This document shows, piece after piece, positions 230 to 57,149 of a stretch of DNA of 64,000 bases. The translations under genes were made by a program, and so were the position numbers. The notes below the pieces were generated by a model. That model did not search any database, had not been told where the DNA came from, and worked only from the letters and a program-made list of their open reading frames with translations. Each line of letters opens with the position of its first letter. The stretch's first letter is position 1. This DNA is from Escherichia phage LHE287. The stretch lies in the sequence record PP761450.1; one strand, written 5' to 3'.

Positions 230-306
230 GGTCCTGTAGCTCAGTCGGTTAGAGCAGTGAACTCATAATTCATTGGTCATTGGTTCAAACCCAATCAGGA
301 TCACCA
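230..306 (+). tRNA. tRNA-Met (anticodon CAT; could be a lysidine-type Ile tRNA)
   Basis: Cloverleaf: acceptor GGTCCTG/CAGGATC, D-arm TAGCTCAGTCGGTTAGAGCA, anticodon stem-loop GTGAA-CTCATAA-TTCAT, T-arm ATTGG-TTCAAAC-CCAAT, 3' ACCA. Confidence 0.8.
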
Positions 307-560: not shown

Positions 561-644
561 GGGGGAGTACCAGAGTGGTCAAATGGGCCTGACTGTAAAT
601 CAGGTGTTTCGGCTTCGGTGGTTCGAATCCATCCTCCCCCACCA
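561..644 (+). tRNA. tRNA-Tyr (anticodon GTA), long variable arm
   Basis: Acceptor GGGGGAG/CTCCCCC, anticodon stem-loop CCTGA-CTGTAAA-TCAGG, long variable arm, T-loop GGTTCGAATCC, 3' ACCA. Confidence 0.8.
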
Positions 645-650
645 AATTAC

Positions 651-724
651 AGGAGCATAGCTAAGCGGTAAGGCAATGGGTTTGATCCCATGATCTCAGG
701 TTCGACTCCTGACGCGCTCTCCCA
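651..724 (+). tRNA. tRNA-like element, possibly a degenerate tRNA; anticodon unresolved
   Basis: Canonical T-arm TCAGG-TTCGACT-CCTGA and D-loop AGCGGTAA, but the acceptor stem pairs poorly and the anticodon hairpin ATGGG-TTTGAT-CCCAT has a 6-nt loop. Confidence 0.3.
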
Positions 725-23118: not shown

Positions 23119-23349
23119 ATGAAGGGCTTCCAGGACTTCCTTGAAGACTCGGCAGCCCCTGGAACCACGACCGCCGATGTGGGGAAACCCGAAGGCGGTA
23201 TGGTGAAAGAGCCTGTCAAGAAGCCCAAGGATCTTGAGGAAGAACAAGAGCAGACCTCCTTCCAAAAGATCTTTGGAAACATCTTCAAAGACCTCGACCT
23301 GAAGAATGCGCGAAAGTGGAACTTCAGGACAGGCAAATATGAAGACTAA
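23119..23349 (+). CDS. small charged protein (76 aa)
   Basis: First ATG of the track ORF 23095..23349; followed by a terminator. Confidence 0.4.
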   Translation: MKGFQDFLEDSAAPGTTTADVGKPEGGMVKEPVKKPKDLEEEQEQTSFQKIFGNIFKDLDLKNARKWNFRTGKYED

Positions 23350-23371
23350 AAGAGGCTCCGGCCTCTTTTTC
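23350..23371 (+). terminator. rho-independent terminator
   Basis: AGAGGC-tccg-GCCTCT followed by TTTTT. Confidence 0.7.
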
Positions 23372-23437
23372 ATTTCCAGCATTTGGTGTATAATGGAACC
23401 GTTCCCCATGAGCGGAACCTAACTGAGGATACACCAA

Positions 23438-23938
23438 ATGAAATCCATGGTCAAACGTAAAGTCGAAATCTCCCTGACTGCCCATATTGAAATGGTCCAA
23501 CAACTTATCCTGGATGCGTATGAAATCCAGAAAGATCGCCAATCGAGGGGAGGTGTGACGGACCCCACCTGTCCTGGAAACATACTGTACTATCGCATGC
23601 TGCGCCAGACTGGGCACACCGCCGCGCTGAAGAAGATTCTGTCCTATGATTTCCAGACAGAGAACAACCTCAACATCATGGGCGTCTTCCATAGCGTTAG
23701 TGAACGCGATTCTTTCTTCCGCTCCCGAGCAGGCGCGGATGTATCATTGCCCGATGTAGACAAGAAACAGCACACGACAACCATCTCCAATTACATGGGC
23801 ACGGGCATCGATAAAGCAAACATCATCGTGTTCTCTGATACGTTGCATGACCCCAAGCGCCTTGCATCTGCGCATGAAATGCTGCGGGAAGGTCGCAGCG
23901 CCCTCACTAATTTGACTTTAGTAGTGTTTCTGGGCTAG
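23438..23938 (+). CDS. hypothetical protein (166 aa)
   Basis: ATG with GAGGA RBS. Confidence 0.5.
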   Translation: MKSMVKRKVEISLTAHIEMVQQLILDAYEIQKDRQSRGGVTDPTCPGNILYYRMLRQTGHTAALKKILSYDFQTENNLNIMGVFHSVSERDSFFRSRAGADVSLPDVDKKQHTTTISNYMGTGIDKANIIVFSDTLHDPKRLASAHEMLREGRSALTNLTLVVFLG

Positions 23939-23987
23939 ATAGTTACAGGGGAGGAAACTCCCCTATTTCCCTAACAGGAGGTGCGCA

Positions 23988-24185
23988 ATGTACAAGTTCA
24001 GAATTAACAGAGAACGTAATTCGTTCAAATTCGGTGTAATCGCTGGGGTGTGTTTGTTCCTGGCGCTCGAAAGCGTTATCGGCCTGCTTACAACACCACA
24101 AATGCAGGTGACTCGTTACCTTCTTGCCATTATATTTTCTGTTGTCGGTTTACTCTGCTCCTATTTGGGGTGTGTGAAGAAATAA
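23988..24185 (+). CDS. small membrane protein (65 aa)
   Basis: Two hydrophobic segments; AGGAGG RBS. Confidence 0.45.
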   Translation: MYKFRINRERNSFKFGVIAGVCLFLALESVIGLLTTPQMQVTRYLLAIIFSVVGLLCSYLGCVKK

Positions 24186-24212
24186 ACTGGCTACACACAG
24201 CAATACTTTGAT

Positions 24213-24716
24213 TTGAGAAACTACATCATGATGCTGTTAATGAACGTTCCACAGAACAAGATGACCCCTGCAACAGAGGGTAAGAATCACTTCAACATCT
24301 ACAGCCGGAGCCAGACGGAACTCGGGCGCTTCCTCTCGCATTTTACCCATCATCCAATGACTACCCATGAACATGGTGTGTTTAACTCCATGGAGGGGTA
24401 CTGGTATTGGCTGAAGTATAGGGATGACAACCTGCGCCTGCTCGACGGTTATGAGGCCAAGCAATATGGACAGGGATTGGCGGCTTCTCGCGTCATTGTC
24501 CTGGACCCGTCTACCGAAGAATTCAAGCGCGATATCCTATTTGCAACTAGCATGAAACTCCAGACAATGCCTGAACGTCTGAAGATCAGATTGGCTTACA
24601 GTCGCCTACCCCTGATCCATGCATATGTTCAGAACGGGAAATACAGTTTTCAAAACTCTATGGACTATATCATTGCCCACATTAATCGTCTCCGCATACA
24701 AGGAACTTTGAAATGA
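24213..24716 (+). CDS. hypothetical protein (167 aa)
   Basis: ATG-initiated ORF; stop overlaps the next start. Confidence 0.45.
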   Translation: MRNYIMMLLMNVPQNKMTPATEGKNHFNIYSRSQTELGRFLSHFTHHPMTTHEHGVFNSMEGYWYWLKYRDDNLRLLDGYEAKQYGQGLAASRVIVLDPSTEEFKRDILFATSMKLQTMPERLKIRLAYSRLPLIHAYVQNGKYSFQNSMDYIIAHINRLRIQGTLK

Positions 24717-25294
24717 AATTTCTACACACTATCGTCGACACTTCTTATGACTGCACTGCTCATACCCCAGACCGTTCGCCTGTGTTTGTTCTGAACAAAC
24801 TAGGTGAAGAGATCTGTGAACTGTCTGATGTGTTTCATGGCATAGTATCTTCCGAGCCGTTGAATGGCGAAGTTGCTGATGTCATTATCTCTGCTATTGA
24901 CCTTCTGTACGTCATGGATTATGACGACGTCCAAATGCGCGGCTCTATGAACAAGGCCGAAATGATCGACTCTGTCATCAACCACATGGCGACAGTGAAC
25001 GATATTTCTTCTAATCTGTTGGAAGAAGACTGGTTCCGTCTGATTGATCGTGATCCTCAAAAGCATCTGAATCTTATCCATCATTATCATGGCCGGATTA
25101 TCCGATTGTGCAACCAGCCTTATCGCAGTCAAGACAGATTGGATCAACTCGTCAATGACCTAATCAAGCATGTTGCGCGCATGGGGTGTGGGGAAGGGGC
25201 GATCCGTGGATCCTCTTTGATGGCCACTCGCATTAAAGTGGAGCACGCTATTGAACACAAGGTTGAAAAGTGGCGTAGCAAATTTGGTCTATAA
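24713..25294 (+). CDS. MazG-like nucleoside triphosphate pyrophosphohydrolase (193 aa)
   Basis: MazG-type pattern LNKLGEEICELSD...EVADVIISAIDLLYV (EExxE...E..D). Confidence 0.4.
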   Translation: MKFLHTIVDTSYDCTAHTPDRSPVFVLNKLGEEICELSDVFHGIVSSEPLNGEVADVIISAIDLLYVMDYDDVQMRGSMNKAEMIDSVINHMATVNDISSNLLEEDWFRLIDRDPQKHLNLIHHYHGRIIRLCNQPYRSQDRLDQLVNDLIKHVARMGCGEGAIRGSSLMATRIKVEHAIEHKVEKWRSKFGL

Positions 25295-25343
25295 GCCAAT
25301 CCCATACATAATCTTGTGTGTTTACCATTGACGGGATAGGCCG

Positions 25344-27254
25344 ATGTCCAACAAAATTGATATTGAACGCAAGTACAAGAAGCTCACTCACGTTGAGCAT
25401 ATCCTACTCCGCCCAGAGCGTCATCTGGGTAGTATTCGTTCGTCTGTGGGGACGGTGTGGGTGTATGACCCAACTAAGGACAAAGTCATCTTCCGTGACA
25501 ACTTTGAGTACTCCCCCGCGCTGATCAAACAGTTTGATGAAATCATCACCAACTGTGTTGACCACAGCAAGACCCCTGAGGGCAAATCCCTGACGGAAAT
25601 CACCGTCACAGTTTCCCCGATGAACGGTCAAATCATCGTTGCTGACAACGGGGGTATCCCTGTGGTCAAGCATGGCGTCACCAACGAGTGGCTTCCTGAA
25701 ATGTTGTTCGGCTCTCTATATGCGGGATCGAACTTCAACGACGAAGACGAAGAGTACAACAACCAGAAGTCCGGTGGTCAGAATGGCGAAGGGGCGTCCC
25801 TCGTCAACGTGTTCTCCAAATGGTTCCGCGTCACGACTAATGACGGCAAGAAGTCTTATACTCAGACGTTTGAAGACAACATGAGCAAGAAATCTAACCC
25901 AGTCATCAGCAACGTGAACAGTCCTGGCACATCCATCGCCTGGATCCCTGACTATGCTCGTCTGGGCGTCAAAGGACTTGACCAGAACAACCTGCTGATG
26001 ATCTATCGCCGCGCGTTTGAAGTGGCTGCGTGTAACCCGCGCCTGAAGATTGTTCTCAACGGGAAGCAAATCCGGATTGACCGCTTTGGCCACTTCGTTG
26101 ATTACTTCCATGCTGGCTCGGCTGTTGACGAAACCGGGGATTGGTCTGTTGCTGTAGCCCCTTCATCCGGTACGTTCATGCACGCATCATACGTGAACTC
26201 TATTGCCACCCACATCGGTGGTCCTCACGTTGATTATGTTGCTGACCAGATCGTGGCAGCGATTCGTCCCCAGCTGGTGAAGAAGTTCAAGACCGAACTG
26301 AAGCCAGCAATGATCAAGAACCACATGTCCTTGTTCATCGCCGCCGACATCAACAACCCGCGCTTTGACAGCCAGACCAAGGAGCGCATGACCACTCCTG
26401 TCAGCCAGTTCGGTACGTCGTACAAGCCCAGTGATAAACTGATCCGCAAGGCGCTTGAGTTCGTTACGGCTGGTCTGAGCAAAGAACTGGCTTCCCTGCG
26501 CAATGAGCAGGACGATGCTGAGTTTGAAAAGGCCAAGAAGGACATCAGCAAGCGGGATTATCGTGAGATTGAGAAGTATTACCCGGCGACCGCCCGTGGT
26601 GACCGCAGCGGATGCTCCCTGTTGCTGACAGAGGGTGATAGTGCCTCCAATCCTATCCTGAACGCCCGCGACACCAAGAAGATCGGGTTGTTCCCGCTTC
26701 GTGGTAAGTTCATCAACTGCCTGAACGCCCCGCGCTCAAAGGTGATGAACAATGAAGAGTTCAAGAACCTGTGTACGATCCACGGCGGCGCAGTGCCAGG
26801 CCAGCCCCTTGATATCACCCGTTACCCACAGACTGTTGTGGCTACCGATGCGGACGATGACGGCATCCACATCCGTGGGTTGTTGATCACCCTGTATTGC
26901 ACCTACTGGCCGGAGTACGTCCGTCAGGGCAGGTTGAAGCTCCTGCGCACCCCTTACATGCGTGTGTGGTGTGGTAAGGTGATGCATGAGTTCATGAACA
27001 ACGCAGAGTATGAGGAGTTCCTGAAGACGCCTGATGCCAAGAAGATTACGAAGAAGAAATATCTGAAAGGTCTGGGTGGTAACAGCACTGAAGACTTCAA
27101 ACGTATTCTAAACAACCTGGATGCGTATACTACGACGGTCACGCTGGACGATGGCTATCAACAGTCACTGAAGAATGGCTTCGGTGATGAGGCCGCCGAT
27201 TACCGCAAAACCTGGTTTAGCGATGTTTGTCTATTTGAGACTGAGGATGAATAA
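25344..27254 (+). CDS. 39: DNA topoisomerase II large subunit (T4 gp39/gp60-like fused ATPase), 636 aa
   Basis: GyrB-type motifs EHILLRP and ADNGGIP; TOPRIM-like region; immediately followed by the gp52-like subunit. Confidence 0.85.
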   Translation: MSNKIDIERKYKKLTHVEHILLRPERHLGSIRSSVGTVWVYDPTKDKVIFRDNFEYSPALIKQFDEIITNCVDHSKTPEGKSLTEITVTVSPMNGQIIVADNGGIPVVKHGVTNEWLPEMLFGSLYAGSNFNDEDEEYNNQKSGGQNGEGASLVNVFSKWFRVTTNDGKKSYTQTFEDNMSKKSNPVISNVNSPGTSIAWIPDYARLGVKGLDQNNLLMIYRRAFEVAACNPRLKIVLNGKQIRIDRFGHFVDYFHAGSAVDETGDWSVAVAPSSGTFMHASYVNSIATHIGGPHVDYVADQIVAAIRPQLVKKFKTELKPAMIKNHMSLFIAADINNPRFDSQTKERMTTPVSQFGTSYKPSDKLIRKALEFVTAGLSKELASLRNEQDDAEFEKAKKDISKRDYREIEKYYPATARGDRSGCSLLLTEGDSASNPILNARDTKKIGLFPLRGKFINCLNAPRSKVMNNEEFKNLCTIHGGAVPGQPLDITRYPQTVVATDADDDGIHIRGLLITLYCTYWPEYVRQGRLKLLRTPYMRVWCGKVMHEFMNNAEYEEFLKTPDAKKITKKKYLKGLGGNSTEDFKRILNNLDAYTTTVTLDDGYQQSLKNGFGDEAADYRKTWFSDVCLFETEDE

Positions 27255-40139: not shown

Positions 40140-40799
40140 TCAGACTCCGTGAGCTTGTATTAGCTCACGGAGTCTCTGTTTTGAATATGTGGTATCCTCA
40201 TCCGGAACCACAGCATTCGTCTTCCTGAGCAAGAACGCCTCTGAGTTCCAGTAGATGTCATCACGCAGAATCGTATCGTATAGATGAATGAAACCAACGA
40301 TCTTGTTCAGACCGACAAGGAACCAAATCGGGAACTTCTTGATGATGATGTCTGTCAGCAACGGTGGATGTCCTGTACCCGTCCCCTTGATGTACTCAAT
40401 GAAGGTGCAGTTGCGCTCCCTTATGGCAGGGATCATCTCCCGCTCGAACTCCTCAAGGAAGTTATATGTGAAGTTCTCGTACAGCTTACGGTATTCATCA
40501 TAATTGGCCTGAGCCTGGCGTGTAAGCAATGTCGTCACCCAGGTCTTGGGTGATTTGATGAAGTTGGCAATGATGTAGTTCTCTACCACTTCACCCTGTG
40601 ATGACTCGAACCGACGGGCAAGGCGAGCAAACTGTTTGCACACGGCCTCCTTCGCCAAGAACGTCTCGAACTTGTAATTCATCGGCCCATACAAGCTGTA
40701 ATCGAAGTCCTTAGTGGTGAAGTGCAGCTTGATCGCCATGAAGACACAGTAAACGTTGAACGCCCGCTCGAACTCCATCTTCTGCCACTCTGTTAGCAT
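40140..40799 (-). CDS. helicase-loader-like protein (T4 gp59-like)
   Basis: 219 aa against 217 aa for T4 gp59; recalled pattern similarity (Y-x-x-F-MAIK-x-H...KDFDY); GAGGA RBS; not verified by alignment. Confidence 0.35.
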   Translation of the reverse strand: MLTEWQKMEFERAFNVYCVFMAIKLHFTTKDFDYSLYGPMNYKFETFLAKEAVCKQFARLARRFESSQGEVVENYIIANFIKSPKTWVTTLLTRQAQANYDEYRKLYENFTYNFLEEFEREMIPAIRERNCTFIEYIKGTGTGHPPLLTDIIIKKFPIWFLVGLNKIVGFIHLYDTILRDDIYWNSEAFLLRKTNAVVPDEDTTYSKQRLRELIQAHGV

Positions 40800-41047
40800 T
40801 TGCGTTCCTCTTCTTTAATAAACTGCAATAACTCTTCCATCAGCCCTTTCTTCTTGATGAACTGTAACACCAGGATGAAGCGACGGAAGGAGCGGGGGAC
40901 AACACGATAACCCTTCGCCCAGTAGTTCACAACATTAGAACAATCCAATAAACGAGCCAGCCCAGATTGTGACACCCCGAGGCTCAGCAGAACCTTGTAC
41001 ATGTACTTCTTGTCATTTACCGGAAGCTCTTTCATTCTTAAACTCAT
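40793..41047 (-). CDS. XRE-family helix-turn-helix regulator (84 aa)
   Basis: HTH signature LSLGVSQSGLARLLDCSNVVNYWAKG. Confidence 0.5.
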   Translation of the reverse strand: MSLRMKELPVNDKKYMYKVLLSLGVSQSGLARLLDCSNVVNYWAKGYRVVPRSFRRFILVLQFIKKKGLMEELLQFIKEEERKC

Positions 41048-41270
41048 GATACTTGTCCGCTAATGTCTTGTAATATTTGTTAGGATTATACTCCTGTTTG
41101 GAATAGTGAAGAGTAAGGGAAGCACTCAGACCTAGGATAATCACGACAACGAGCGCCTTGTGGTTATTGATCTCGGGAATAGCTATCCACACCAGCAACA
41201 ACACAAGCGAGCTGATAATCAAGGACAGTAAGAACGTTAATGCAATCACCAATGCGAATAGCTCGTCCAT
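41013..41270 (-). CDS. small membrane protein (85 aa)
   Basis: Long hydrophobic N-terminal region; overlaps the start of the HTH gene by about 35 nt. Confidence 0.35.
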   Translation of the reverse strand: MDELFALVIALTFLLSLIISSLVLLLVWIAIPEINNHKALVVVIILGLSASLTLHYSKQEYNPNKYYKTLADKYHEFKNERASGK

Positions 41271-41274
41271 CAGA

Positions 41275-41496
41275 TCACACCTCTTTGTGATTCTTCATCT
41301 TGCGGACAGTGCCCACAAACCCAAGATCCTTCCCGCAATGGGTGCAGATAGCATGGCAAGCATGGTTCTCACGATAGGTGCTGTGTTTGCAGCGCCATTG
41401 CTTGAACGCCGAACGGGCAACTGGGATCAAGGCGATCAAGAAGACGATGCCGGATATCTGAAGTTCAACCAAGAACTTCGCCCACCAGAAACTCAT
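41275..41496 (-). CDS. small membrane protein with C-terminal Cys/His cluster
   Basis: Internal start chosen to avoid overlap with the ligase gene; TM helix FLVELQISGIVFLIALIPV and motif HACHAICTHCGKD. Confidence 0.3.
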   Translation of the reverse strand: MSFWWAKFLVELQISGIVFLIALIPVARSAFKQWRCKHSTYRENHACHAICTHCGKDLGFVGTVRKMKNHKEV

Positions 41497-41500
41497 ATAC

Positions 41501-42931
41501 TCACCCATTACCCTTCTCCAACAGGAATGTGATGTTTTCGATGTACGCTTTCTGTATCGCATAGACTTCATCCAGTGTGTTGGCCACTTTCTTGTCAATG
41601 CGGACTTCTACAAGGCGAGGTAGGAACAAAGACTTCATCGCATCATCGGTCTTATCCTGTACGCCATTGGAGAGCACTGCGGCGATCTTGCCAATGTAGT
41701 CGCCCTGGTTCTCCCACATATGGCGTCTCAGCTCATCTGAGATCCCTGATACGCCAACAACAAGCAGGCTGTCGGAAGTTTTACAAATCAGTGAGCCAAA
41801 AGTCTTGGCGTGTTTGCCTTTCTTGTCGGCCTCGTTGAATCCCACGATTTCAAGGTCACACTCAACCTCCATCTTCAGCTTCAGACCTTCAGAAGAAGTA
41901 CCATCTTCCCAAGGCATGTCGGCGGCCTTACATATCGTGCCTTCTTCTTTGCGAGCCAGCGCGTCTTTGAAGTGGTCGACGGCTTCGGCAAATGAGTGAA
42001 CAACGCGGGTTTCTTGAACCTGAACCAGACCGTCGTCTTCATCAAACAGTTGCTGGATGATATCGAAGCGGCGCTCATACGGGGTGTCCACGCGCTGGGC
42101 GTTGAACCAGTTGTCGTACGGGATAACATCCCACACCCGGTAGATTACCCGATAACGATCTTCCAGGGGTTCTCCTGTCTGAATCACGCTGTTGAGTTTA
42201 CCGTTACCGACAGCACGAGGCAGGATGGTATTCGACTTGAGGTCAACAACGAGAAGTTCACCATGGAACACACTCTCACCAATCCCCGCATCGTAGATCA
42301 GGTCTTTGAACACCAGTGAAAGGTTATCAACCGAACCACCTGCGATAAGGGAACCGGAGCGAGAGCGAATCTCAGGTTCTTTATTGTACCGACATATGAT
42401 GTTGGCGAACATACCGTCTGACTTCAGCTGGCTGTAGACGCCGCGCTTGAAGTCCATCTTCTTCAGCAGGTCAATCGTCATGTTGTCATAACGATGATAT
42501 GGAAGGATGTTGATCAGGCGTCCAGTGCCTCCGGCGGCGTTGAATGCAGCGTTGATACCCTTCTCTGCGATACCCGCCTTGATATCACGGTCTAGGATCA
42601 TCTGAATGAGTTCGTGGTATTGGGGATCCATCTTCAGGGCGACAGAGGCCAACAGGGCATCAGCCTTTTGGCCACCGACAAGGCGCTGCGCCATCTGGTC
42701 GAGGACGTCATAGACTTCGCTGATGTCATCAGTCTTCTCACGGACGAGCATGCGAGGGTACGCGCTGAGCTTCAACTCAGTCCGATAGAACGACGTCATT
42801 GGGTCATAGACATATTGCAGGAAGTCTGCCAAGTCTGGGTTATTCTTGAATGCTTCGGTCAGCACAGCTTTCTTCGCATTGCTGCCTTTGGTTTCGCGAA
42901 GTCGGTGGACTGTTTCAAGGATAGGGATCAT
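41501..42931 (-). CDS. 30: ATP-dependent DNA ligase (T4 gp30-like), 476 aa
   Basis: Adenylation motif SQLKSDGMF (KxDG); size matches T4 ligase; GGAGA RBS. Confidence 0.85.
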   Translation of the reverse strand: MIPILETVHRLRETKGSNAKKAVLTEAFKNNPDLADFLQYVYDPMTSFYRTELKLSAYPRMLVREKTDDISEVYDVLDQMAQRLVGGQKADALLASVALKMDPQYHELIQMILDRDIKAGIAEKGINAAFNAAGGTGRLINILPYHRYDNMTIDLLKKMDFKRGVYSQLKSDGMFANIICRYNKEPEIRSRSGSLIAGGSVDNLSLVFKDLIYDAGIGESVFHGELLVVDLKSNTILPRAVGNGKLNSVIQTGEPLEDRYRVIYRVWDVIPYDNWFNAQRVDTPYERRFDIIQQLFDEDDGLVQVQETRVVHSFAEAVDHFKDALARKEEGTICKAADMPWEDGTSSEGLKLKMEVECDLEIVGFNEADKKGKHAKTFGSLICKTSDSLLVVGVSGISDELRRHMWENQGDYIGKIAAVLSNGVQDKTDDAMKSLFLPRLVEVRIDKKVANTLDEVYAIQKAYIENITFLLEKGNG

Positions 42932-43044
42932 GTGGTGTCTCCAGGGTTATATGTGCTGCTATTATAACCCTGGGGACTTCAATAGATTATTGGCGGGTGT
43001 GAGATTTTGCCTGACCGATAATGAGGTCAGTGTGTAGTCCTCAG

Positions 43045-43386
43045 TTATTTCTTCGGAGGTTCAATTGAGGTGAAAGAATCCTTCCAACTCTTGAATTTTT
43101 CAACCAGAGCTTCTTTACCCAGCTCGTCATTTGACACGCTGTGAATATAGGCGAATGCTCCATAGCCGGATCCTGGCATAGCCTTGCAGATGCGCAGACT
43201 GACCAAAGAATCTCCTACGGAAACAAGATAGTGGTCACGACGATTGTTCAGGGCATAATGGTTGTCGTGAAACTTGTCAACAATAACACAGTTCTGAGGT
43301 TCGACGTCAATCGGTAGCCCGTTGGCTTCGGATCCGCCGCGCCCAAGCACGCAGCCTGGGAATAATGTTTCTACGAGTGTAGTCAT
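43045..43386 (-). CDS. hypothetical protein (113 aa)
   Basis: ATG-initiated ORF. Confidence 0.45.
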   Translation of the reverse strand: MTTLVETLFPGCVLGRGGSEANGLPIDVEPQNCVIVDKFHDNHYALNNRRDHYLVSVGDSLVSLRICKAMPGSGYGAFAYIHSVSNDELGKEALVEKFKSWKDSFTSIEPPKK

Positions 43387-43640
43387 AGTCTGTTCCTTCT
43401 GTAAGTTCCCATGTATTATATGGGTGAATAGTTTATTGAATTATTTGTTATGAAACCCAGAGCCTTGCGGACTTCTTCACGATTTTTAATTTCGGTCTGA
43501 GCCTCTGTGCGATTAATCTAGCGCTTGTGATGTCGGGAGAGGGCTTTGTAAACAAGCCTTGGCGTCAATGGCATCGATTAGACAACGGATCTCAGCGCAT
43601 CAGAGGCTTGCCCAACAGCCAGTTGAAATACTTGCGCATG

Positions 43641-52263: not shown

Positions 52264-53100
52264 TTACACAGCTTTCGCTTCAGCCAGAGCCTGTGGAAGC
52301 CATTCATTGATCGCCTTAACCAGAGACTCAGCATCAGACTCTTTGATCTTCTGACGTTTGGTGAAGGACTTGCCGTTCACGTACAGGCTGAAGCCCCAGC
52401 CACCGGAAACGATAGGCGCAACGTCGACATACGTATTGGTGCGGGCGTGAAGGTTTTCAGGGTTAGCCAGTTCGGTGACCGGGAACTGGAACCAACGCAT
52501 GTCTGGGTTCACGTAGCTCAGGAACACGCCGGGAACAACACCAGCTTCAATCGCCGCCAAGACCGGACCGTGATCAGAAGCGCGAGCCAAGTCAACCATT
52601 TCCTCACGTTTGGTGTGACGGCGTTTACGCTCTACCAGCGCCGCCTGCGGAGTCAGGGTCTTACCCTTCGATGCTTCTTTCAACATAGAAGACGCCAAGG
52701 AACCGATTTTCGCGTCGGACGGCTGATTACCTTCTTCCAGCGCCGCGTTGACTGCATCTTCAACCGCGTCTACCGGGGCGTCGGACACTGGGGCTTCACA
52801 TGCATCGGCAGAGATCGGTGCTTCAGCATCAATGGTTTCAGCGACTTTCAGGGATACTTCAGCTTGGGCTTGCTCTTGGGCTTGCGCCAGAGCCTGCTGA
52901 GTTTCTTCCTTCTCTTCGGCGCTCAGACCTTCAATCAGTTCGAAGCCGTTGGCAGCCTGAAGAACACCTTCAACCATACGGCGCAGGGTAACGTTTCCGA
53001 TGATCAGACCTGCTTCTTTGATTTCAGCCTGGATAGCCGCAACGTCTTTGCCTTCAATTTCAATTTTGGTTCCAGAATCCACATGAAGAATATATGACAT
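52264..53100 (-). CDS. hypothetical protein with acidic low-complexity centre (278 aa)
   Basis: ATG-initiated ORF; central Ala/Glu/Gln-rich region. Confidence 0.45.
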   Translation of the reverse strand: MSYILHVDSGTKIEIEGKDVAAIQAEIKEAGLIIGNVTLRRMVEGVLQAANGFELIEGLSAEEKEETQQALAQAQEQAQAEVSLKVAETIDAEAPISADACEAPVSDAPVDAVEDAVNAALEEGNQPSDAKIGSLASSMLKEASKGKTLTPQAALVERKRRHTKREEMVDLARASDHGPVLAAIEAGVVPGVFLSYVNPDMRWFQFPVTELANPENLHARTNTYVDVAPIVSGGWGFSLYVNGKSFTKRQKIKESDAESLVKAINEWLPQALAEAKAV

Positions 53101-55155: not shown

Positions 55156-56100
55156 GTGGAAGACTATCGCAATTTTATCACACAGATATTACAGCGGGGC
55201 TTGTCGCGCAAGAACCGCTTCAGAGTGACCATCCCTCTACCACCAGGGATCTTTGACTCCAACGCCACTCTGGCTAATGACGGAAAGGCGTACAGAACCA
55301 ATTCATCTTTTGGTGACTTGTTTAAGCAGTCAGCCCGTATTGTAAACGCTTTCTTTGGAGGGACAAACCAGACGTCCCGTTCCCTTCAGATGATGTGTAT
55401 GGTTGCCTCATTGCCAGGGGTTGGTATTGACACCACTCCAATGACAAACAACGGTAATCACATCAAGATGCCGAACAACAAGTCCAACGTCGACCTCGAC
55501 TTGTCATTCTTATTAGCCAATGACTATTATGAGAAGTCTGTGATGGACAAGTGGAAGAGTCTGATCTTTGATCCACACACCACCAAAATGGGATATTACG
55601 AAGACTTCGTGACTGACATATGCATTGAACAGCTTGACACCGAAGATCAAGTGGTCCATCGCGTCTACATCGTCGAGGCTCACCCAATAAATTTCAGTTC
55701 TATTGAGCTGGATAAAGGCGCCACAGACCAGTTCAACCAGTACAACATTTCTTTCTCTTACAACAAAGTGCTTTCGGAGACAGAATATGAAACACGCAGC
55801 CTTTCCAGCGATTTTCTTCCTCTCGGCATTGCTGACGCTCTTACCAGTGGTGACTGGGAAACTGCGGCCTCAAAAGCTGGACAGCTTTATCGCAAGGTGA
55901 AAGAAGGGAACTTCACAGGAGAGGCTCTCCTGGCTTACAAACAGCTTGACCAACTTGTAAACAACCTGGCTGGGATAAGCATACAGGACTTCGAGCGCAT
56001 CTCGGTAGGTATCTCTCGTGACATCATGGGTAACGATAACCTGACGGCGGCGGAGAAGACAAGCCTGTTGGGAATATTGCAAGACGTGATGGGAAAATAA
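55156..56100 (+). CDS. hypothetical late protein, probable virion or morphogenesis component (314 aa)
   Basis: GTG start with GGAG RBS downstream of the late promoter. Confidence 0.45.
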   Translation: MEDYRNFITQILQRGLSRKNRFRVTIPLPPGIFDSNATLANDGKAYRTNSSFGDLFKQSARIVNAFFGGTNQTSRSLQMMCMVASLPGVGIDTTPMTNNGNHIKMPNNKSNVDLDLSFLLANDYYEKSVMDKWKSLIFDPHTTKMGYYEDFVTDICIEQLDTEDQVVHRVYIVEAHPINFSSIELDKGATDQFNQYNISFSYNKVLSETEYETRSLSSDFLPLGIADALTSGDWETAASKAGQLYRKVKEGNFTGEALLAYKQLDQLVNNLAGISIQDFERISVGISRDIMGNDNLTAAEKTSLLGILQDVMGK

Positions 56101-56126
56101 AAAGCCATCCGAAGATGGCTTGTTGA

Positions 56127-57149
56127 TCAGTTAGACTTGAGATACTGCTCGAATTCGTCAATGGAAGCCGTGTTTCTGGCATTCGGTTGAGTCTGAGTCT
56201 GAGTCTGAGTCTGCGACGGCGCGGCCTGTTGCTGTTTCAGGCTGTCTTGAGCAGTTGGCTGATGTGTAGTCTGGGTGCTAGGAGCATGAGCCATCGTGGC
56301 TGCACCACCTTCAACCAGAGGCTGGTCATCAGGGATTGCCAGAACTTTGCGCAGGCGCTTTTCCAGGGAGTCGTAGTCTTTGAAGTTGGCCGGATTGAAG
56401 AATTCAAACAGGCTGTGCTCGCGAGACCAGACGTCTTCCATATACGCTTCGTCATCACTCAGCGGGGCAGGGTTCTCCCACACCACCTTACTGAAGTTTG
56501 CCACCAGACCTTCCCAGTTCCCAAACTTCTTCTGCTCGCCAAAGAGCTTCAGGTTCAGGTTGGCACCTTCCCACAGATCGAACGGATCGAATTTAGGGTC
56601 GGTTGGGAACTTAGGATTCTGCGCCTGATCCAGGATTTTCTTGATGGCGTTACCAAATTCCAGCAGGAAGACCTTGCCGTTGTTTTCCGGTACGTTGACA
56701 TCTTTGATCACCAGAATGTTAGCGTAGTATTTGGTGTCGGGTAGACGTTTCTTCAGGATGTCCTTCAGCTTTTCGTCGTTCGTTTCTTTCTGCTGCGCCC
56801 ACAGCGGACGGTCATGGTCGCGCACCGGATCGTCGTTACCGAACGTCTGAGGTGAGTTCTCAATGTACCATCCACCAGGTCCCTGGAACTGATGTTTCAT
56901 GATCATGGCACAAGGGGTGAGGATCTGATCTTTATCGATCGTCCCTTCTTCCTGTGCCTTGAGGTCTACCAGCGGGACTGGCAGGAAGCGGATGATGTTC
57001 TCGGAGATACCATCTTTATTCCAAGTCCATTTCCAGATGCGAGGATCCTTCTGGAAACCGGACTTCTGGCCTTGCTGTGCAAGACGCGCCTGCATAGCTT
57101 CAGTTTGCTGGCCACGGGACGCTTTCAGACGATCGAATAAATTACCCAT
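56127..57149 (-). CDS. 32: single-stranded DNA-binding protein (T4 gp32-like)
   Basis: gp32-like segments IIRFLPVP and GGWYIENS; contains a (TQ)n C-terminal repeat. Confidence 0.7.
   Translation of the reverse strand: MGNLFDRLKASRGQQTEAMQARLAQQGQKSGFQKDPRIWKWTWNKDGISENIIRFLPVPLVDLKAQEEGTIDKDQILTPCAMIMKHQFQGPGGWYIENSPQTFGNDDPVRDHDRPLWAQQKETNDEKLKDILKKRLPDTKYYANILVIKDVNVPENNGKVFLLEFGNAIKKILDQAQNPKFPTDPKFDPFDLWEGANLNLKLFGEQKKFGNWEGLVANFSKVVWENPAPLSDDEAYMEDVWSREHSLFEFFNPANFKDYDSLEKRLRKVLAIPDDQPLVEGGAATMAHAPSTQTTHQPTAQDSLKQQQAAPSQTQTQTQTQPNARNTASIDEFEQYLKSN
56190..56213. repeat. tandem hexanucleotide repeat (GAGTCT)x4 within the gp32-like gene
   Basis: Four direct copies of GAGTCT, encoding QTQTQTQT on the minus strand. 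Confidence 0.8.

Follow-up and report, generated by a model that had tools for sequence, protein, structure and literature searches.

Variability of the disordered linker is a recognised property of single-stranded-DNA-binding proteins (SSBs). In phage T4, the C-terminal A domain of the SSB gp32 (residues 255-301) recruits partner proteins, for example Dda, which is bound by a hydrophobic/acidic helix with L262, D263 and F265 as key residues (PMC11551737), and the serine cluster in the C-terminal domain of T4 gp32 is five residues longer than that of RB69 (PMC535899). For the E. coli SSB, one study reports that partner peptides bind via the tip whatever the linker length, and that binding changes only when large parts of the linker are deleted (PMC7145534). 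Length variation of the low-complexity gp32 C-terminus is already known from the comparison of T4 with RB69; what is new here is a hexanucleotide repeat tract, variable in unit number, in the SSB gene of an Agtrevirus-like phage. Our literature search found no paper on the tract in the SSBs of Agtrevirus or Ackermannviridae.

The window, i.e. the whole 64-kb stretch of DNA that was analysed, carries this gene on the minus strand (see the table below). On its sequence, the product is a gp32-type phage SSB: it matched Pfam PF08804 (gp32) over profile positions 1-207 of 208 (E = 1e-56, 192.7 bits, cutoff 26.8), PHROG 224 'single strand DNA binding protein' (E = 1.5e-100) and the solved gp32 chains of T4 and RB69 (8gme_A from T4, E = 2.9e-19; 2atq_B, 8.4e-18; 1gpc_A, 1.5e-16), and the homologous gene in GenBank relatives is annotated as ssDNA-binding protein. 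Both the profile match and the homology to known structures with an OB-fold core place it in the family, the OB-fold core being assigned by sequence homology and an AlphaFold2 model (beta-rich, pLDDT >90). Megablast of the gene led to the Ackermannviridae, subfamily Aglimvirinae, and specifically to Agtrevirus-like phages, the top matches being the E. coli phages RPN242 and YX22 at 98.8%.

Features of the SSB locus and of its surroundings in the window
Feature	Position	Strand	Basis or remark
gp32-family single-stranded-DNA-binding protein gene, 340 aa	56127..57149	-	Pfam, PHROG, gp32 structures, annotation in relatives
(CAG ACT)4 hexanucleotide repeat, Q313-T320	56190..56213, perfect periodicity to 56188..56213	-	TRF, direct reading, simulations
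Low-conservation, predicted-disordered linker rich in Q, A, T and P, ~residues 284-329, holding the repeat	56160..56298	-	AlphaFold2, column conservation
Conserved C-terminal tip I330-N340 (IDEFEQYLKSN), predicted amphipathic acidic helix	56130..56159	-	Conservation, AlphaFold2
gp54-like tail-tube/baseplate gene	55156..56100	+	Convergent with the SSB gene
Hairpin terminator between the convergent SSB and gp54-like genes	56102..56121	.	8-bp stem and adjoining T run in a terminator scan

Upstream of the SSB gene, the minus strand carries a small ORF and a gene for a gp33-like late-transcription coactivator, and at the position equivalent to the intergenic hairpin, phage Ag3 has an annotated rho-independent terminator on both strands. 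The colinear region of relatives encodes a helicase loader, a primase/helicase, a UvsX-like recombinase and a ligase; gp59-like, gp41-like and UvsX-like partners are encoded by the window as well as by its relatives. Colinearity with the phages RPN242, ZQ1 and AV101 is interrupted by a few gene-scale insertions/replacements (~23345-25371, 40778-41516 and 42990-43614), and RPN242 has HNH endonuclease genes, unaligned with the window, beside its topoisomerase and helicase-loader genes; these breaks are typical homing-endonuclease mosaicism. Elsewhere in the window, the Rfam tRNA model gave a third, weak tRNA-like sequence at 651..720 (+) (32 bits, gathering score 29), directly after tRNA-Met (230..306) and tRNA-Tyr (561..644), at a place where ARAGORN makes no call.

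The protein shares with T4 gp32 its family membership, the three-part layout of N-terminal helix, OB-fold core and C-terminal tail, and a low-complexity run in the tail, variable in length among relatives, ahead of acidic/hydrophobic residues. The two differ, however, in the nature of that run, which is a Ser/Asp cluster in T4 but a Q-X dipeptide repeat arising from a clean hexanucleotide microsatellite here, and in the helices of the tail, T4 having an internal helix (248-270) and an acidic end (273-301) whereas the window's protein has a single short terminal helix (IDEFEQYL). They differ further in that the tail is without residue-level similarity to that of T4 and three of the four T4 zinc ligands are unconserved. 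In the HMMER alignment, read by eye, the ligands H64, C77, C87 and C90 align with H86, S99, V109 and H112, so that the Zn(II) site His64-Cys77-Cys87-Cys90 of T4 is not found in the window's SSB. S99 is almost invariant across the Ackermannviridae-type family, and judging from these aligned residues, zinc binding of the T4 type is probably absent from this branch of the gp32 family.

TRF identified a perfect period-6 tract of 26 nt at 56188..56213 (4.3 copies, 100% matches). Read directly, the tract contains GAGTCT x4 at 56189..56212 (...ggttGAGTCTGAGTCTGAGTCTGAGTCTgcgac...), and the overlapping segment 56190..56213 is AGTCTG x4, the reverse complement of which, CAG ACT x4, coincides with codons of the minus-strand ORF 56127..57149. 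The four units encode QTQTQTQT, residues 313-320 of the 340-aa protein, flanked by S312 and by Q321-P322. Among the period-6 tracts of the 64-kb window it is the longest, every other one being at most 14 nt, and in 100 windows simulated with a first-order Markov model the longest such tract measured 12-17 nt. The hexanucleotide repeat is confirmed as real and non-random; its short unit is repeated head to tail without error over a length beyond chance (26 nt, whereas no simulated tract exceeded 17 nt), as in a coding microsatellite. TRF and direct reading thereby agree with the preliminary description, made from the sequence before this analysis, of four direct hexanucleotide repeats that keep the reading frame near the C-terminal end of a gp32-like SSB.

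The position of the tract in the protein was assessed with an AlphaFold2 model built on a 57-sequence alignment (mean pLDDT 82.9). The core, approximately residues 40-280, was predicted at pLDDT >90, whereas residues 288-302 and 307-327 fell below 50, and a terminal helix was predicted at 331-339. The block containing the repeat, residues 311-320, had the lowest confidence of the whole protein (mean 37). Column conservation was 0.26-0.49 at residues 313-321, with up to 47% gaps, compared with 0.2-0.5 for the linker overall, and climbed again at I330-D-E-F333-E-x-Y-L337, where F333 is present in 54 of the 57 homologues and L337 in 49. The corresponding motif of the family is [LIVM]-[DE]-[DE]-F-E-x-[FYLMW]-L, and in the window's protein it starts nine residues downstream of the last residue of the repeat. 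The spacer from V269 to F333 counts 63 residues in the window and 48-79 aa in the 57 homologues (median 66); across the family, A, Q, P, S, D, E, T and G are abundant in it, and dipeptide repeats with three or more units (TQ, AG, GS, GT and QA) have been independently acquired there in five of the 57 members.

Several further observations concern this tail. The Kuttervirus SSBs have a 6-nt in-frame indel of their own, GGT GCC versus GGT GCG GGT GCC, giving GGADAK versus GGAGADAK about 10 codons ahead of the conserved tip, at the equivalent pre-tip position, and more distant homologues show runs of GSGSGS, AGAGAG, GTGTGT, TQTQTQ or QAQAQA there. In mid-tail, AlphaFold2 placed a short low-confidence helix, AQDSLKQQQ (residues 300-308; 56240..56250, minus strand), and a motif P-T-A-Q-[DE]-S-L-x-Q-Q-Q is common to the Agtrevirus, Limestonevirus and Kuttervirus homologues; the modelled helix could represent a second short linear motif.

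Alignment with full-length T4 gp32 by HMMER paired query residues 15-286 with T4 residues 6-250 and ended there, so that the tract corresponds in position to the T4 A domain (255-301) but without residue-level similarity. The tail (residues ~284-340) is comparable in length to the A domain and has a conserved acidic/aromatic tip, with no sequence similarity to T4 255-301. Thus, the analogy with the T4 gp32 tail drawn in the preliminary description holds for position and not for homology of residues. Similarly, the suggestion that changes in copy number would lengthen or shorten a tail mediating protein-protein interactions is supported as far as length is concerned, whole-unit changes being seen as alleles (below), but the tract itself lies in a disordered linker (pLDDT <50) with no recognisable interaction motif. 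By analogy with the acidic tip of E. coli SSB and the Dda-binding helix of T4 gp32, both of which it resembles, the tip is the likely candidate for a partner-docking element; by eye its I-D-E-F is similar to the L-D-A-F of T4 gp32.

The layout also resembles that of E. coli SSB, in which an OB-fold core is followed by a disordered tether of variable length rich in Q, P, G and A (the IDL, 56 aa) and a short conserved acidic/aromatic tip of nine residues, onto which partner proteins dock. E. coli SSB, however, belongs to an unrelated OB-fold lineage, acts as a homotetramer in contrast to a cooperative monomer filament, and has a tip of the DFDDDIPF type versus IDEFEQYL here; the comparison is one of mechanism by analogy, not of family membership.

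To compare unit numbers, the gene was collected from 20 GenBank phages, 19 IMG/VR contigs and two metagenome contigs, together with 14 members of a 100-member 90% protein cluster, and DNA for three more alleles was obtained from public assemblies. The metagenome scan added just two loci, the protein-cluster route being far more productive. The clade compared comprises phages of E. coli, Salmonella and Enterobacter; leaving the tract aside, they match the window over 1.6 kb at an identity of 97.9% or more. All of them show the form S-(Q-X)n-Q-P at the tract, where n = 2-5 and X is Ala, Thr or Ser, and 13 distinct alleles were found, namely (X residues only) AA, AT and AS with two units; AAA, AAS, ATS and TTS with three; TTTT, ASSS, ATTS, ATTT and TTTS with four; and ATTTS with five. 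The window's allele, TTTT, is the purest known, with four identical ACT units, and neither (QT)4 nor the window's exact protein is present in the collection of 15 billion proteins from which the 90% cluster was drawn. Eight alleles (TTTT, ATTS, ATS, ATTT, TTS, AAA, TTTS and ATTTS) occur on a protein that, apart from the tract, matches the window's at 100% identity, and the window's nearest relative at the DNA level, with eight differences in 1599 nt (99.5% identity), has three units. Thus, whole units differ in number between conserved flanks in close relatives, in line with the copy-number differences that the preliminary description had expected and unlike the identical copy number in all related genomes that it had named as the contrary outcome. 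All 13 alleles preserve the reading frame and the downstream tip. Outside the clade, the Ag3/SKML-39 group has a degenerate five-unit version, QT QT QI QS QS, and in Limestonevirus and more distant genera the sequence at this position is non-repetitive.

The composition of the alleles bears on how they arose. All units are CAG-NCT (N = A, G or T), and synonymous differences between units are wholly absent from the E. coli-phage clade. Copying of adjacent units would lead to this uniformity; independent selection on a peptide repeat would not. Several alleles form stepwise series, i.e. AS, ATS, ATTS and ATTTS, with one ACT unit added per step; TTS, TTTS and TTTT; and AA and AAA. Like units are contiguous in every allele, and units of different kinds always keep the order A, T, S; a statistic for the adjacency of identical units gave a product of probabilities of 0.008, which is supportive only, since the alleles are not independent.

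Short tandem repeats are prone to mis-assembly, and it might be argued, also from the absence of the window's exact protein from the protein collection, that the differences in copy number are artefacts of sequencing or assembly. The tract of 24 nt, however, is far below any read length, the flanks are colinear with no other indels, and individual alleles were found repeatedly in independent contigs and isolates, with 25 contigs for the ATTS protein, 16 for ATS and 13-15 for ATTT, and five different runs for TTTS. We therefore regard the chance of an artefact as close to negligible.

A second alternative is that the TGAGTC/GAGTC hexamers function at the nucleic acid level, as an array of protein-binding sites, a cluster of restriction/methylation targets or an RNA structure, the coding repeat then being incidental. 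The window has fewer GAGTC sites than expected, 86 on both strands versus 151 +/- 11.5 in dinucleotide-preserving shuffles, yet four of the 86 are clustered within the 24-nt repeat (56189-56211); the scarcity could result from restriction avoidance or from codon or composition effects. In relatives, however, GCT or TCT units replace ACT and destroy GAGTC, leaving no conserved DNA motif, and a functional cluster of motifs or restriction sites was rejected on these grounds. An RNA structure was likewise rejected, the 111 nt of mRNA around the tract folding at z = +0.86 with the repeat unpaired. Rfam gave no match and no promoter-like sites were found at the tract, the only relevant terminator being the one downstream (56102..56121). 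Taken together, a nucleic acid element appears very improbable. An antisense ORF at 56187..56744 (+), starting 'MSLSLSLSL', was also considered and rejected: it is open only in relatives of >97% identity and is interrupted by a stop in Ag3 and SKML-39; it is a shadow of the gp32 frame.

Comparison at the genome scale showed that the tract is a local hotspot of length change. When ~46-47 kb of the two-unit phages ZQ1 and AV101 (97-98% identity) were aligned with the window, only one multi-unit repeat-associated indel emerged, that in the gp32 tract; RPN242, having four units as in the window, is uninformative for indels of the tract. The sole other tandem-duplication indel in the ZQ1 and AV101 alignments was a single 3-nt ACT at 52787 (versus AV101). 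Near it, TRF found an imperfect tandem repeat at 52862..52885 (GCTTGG x3.8 or a 12-nt unit x1.9), and the neighbouring gene may thus have a coding repeat polymorphism of its own, on a smaller scale. Runs with adjacent accessions share their allele, SRR32678523 and SRR32678524 both carrying TTTS, and SRR16327181 and SRR16327201 both ATTT, an agreement that is uninformative on low-frequency variants. With each allele on many contigs from different samples and neighbouring-accession runs alike, the rate of change would be modest. These data suggest that the tract changes much faster than the flanks do by point substitution, with no sign of the instability of a contingency locus. Like the contingency loci of bacteria, it is a tandem simple-sequence repeat in a coding region with a unit number changing, as it appears, by slipped-strand mispairing; unlike them, it has a 6-nt unit, a multiple of three, in only 2-5 copies, and its alleles are unchanged on many contigs. 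A phase-variable contingency locus, in which unit number switches the reading frame or promoter spacing, was rejected, since all 13 alleles are in frame.

We consider it likely that the tract is a slippage-prone coding microsatellite in a disordered tether that is under weak constraint as to exact length and composition. The CAG-NCT units, encoding Gln-Thr, Gln-Ala or Gln-Ser, lie inside the linker that joins the OB-fold ssDNA-binding core to the acidic/aromatic C-terminal helix. During replication or recombination, adjacent identical units would mispair, by replication slippage or unequal exchange, and whole 6-nt units would be gained or lost with the frame kept, lengthening or shortening the linker by two residues per event; with a unit that is a multiple of three, neither a frameshift nor an on/off switch results. 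The tether would be constrained in character, i.e. to be flexible and polar, and only weakly in exact length, and variants would persist, leaving 2-5 units polymorphic. Slippage is inferred here from the allele patterns and near-neutrality of unit number from the tolerance of the linker, and the tip may bind partners as its counterparts in the better-known SSBs do. Because the family linker spans 48-79 aa, a step of two residues is unlikely to matter much, and by comparison with E. coli SSB its functional effect is probably small, at most subtle. Slippage alone does not account for all of the alleles. For example, TTTT is one base from ATTT or TTTS, so that part of the diversity is, from the codons, attributable to substitution; recombination between co-infecting phages could in addition shuffle alleles, and four hexamer units are short for a highly unstable microsatellite.

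Alternatively, the length and composition of the linker may be under diversifying selection, setting the reach of the C-terminal tip, with different hosts or conditions favouring different unit numbers. In variants of this explanation, the tract could adjust the balance of the tip between docking in the ssDNA groove and binding replisome or recombination partners (helicase loader, helicase and UvsX-like recombinase), or adjust SSB condensation. The unit variants all change the amino acid (the first codon position giving A, T or S), variability in the tract far exceeds that of its surroundings, and the gp59-like, gp41-like and UvsX-like partners are, as noted above, encoded by these phages. In addition, the C-terminal region of T4 gp32 has been proposed to be bifunctional (PMC11551737), and large linker deletions in E. 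coli SSB affect the binding of partners, the tip competing with the DNA-binding sites, according to PMC7145534, which, however, also describes the binding of partner peptides as independent of linker length. The steps, moreover, amount to just two residues in a 63-residue spacer in a family that tolerates 48-79; unit number shows no visible correlation with host (E. coli phages 2-4, Salmonella 3, Enterobacter 2); A, T and S are small and chemically alike; and the codon homogeneity points to a process at the DNA level. On balance, selection on the reach of the tip seems unlikely. The more specific proposal that the Q-X tract is a rapidly evolving tuner of length and composition, weighing self-inhibition of the tip on the ssDNA groove against recruitment, or acting on condensation in replication factories, is in our view quite doubtful. 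If it were true, Agtrevirus-like phages would gain a heritable, quickly adjustable parameter of replication, and the recurrent, independent dipeptide repeats in other genera would mark a general tuning strategy of gp32-type SSBs.

A slippage-prone microsatellite under weak constraint, the explanation that we prefer, has more modest implications. The tract is a handy, fast-evolving length marker for distinguishing near-identical Agtrevirus-like phages of E. coli, Salmonella and Enterobacter, and its practical value is modest; a larger significance would follow only if unit number were shown to alter the efficiency of replication or recombination. For the biology of these phages, the alleles indicate that the SSB tether tolerates steps of two residues, in agreement with linkers being constrained in kind and not in exact length.
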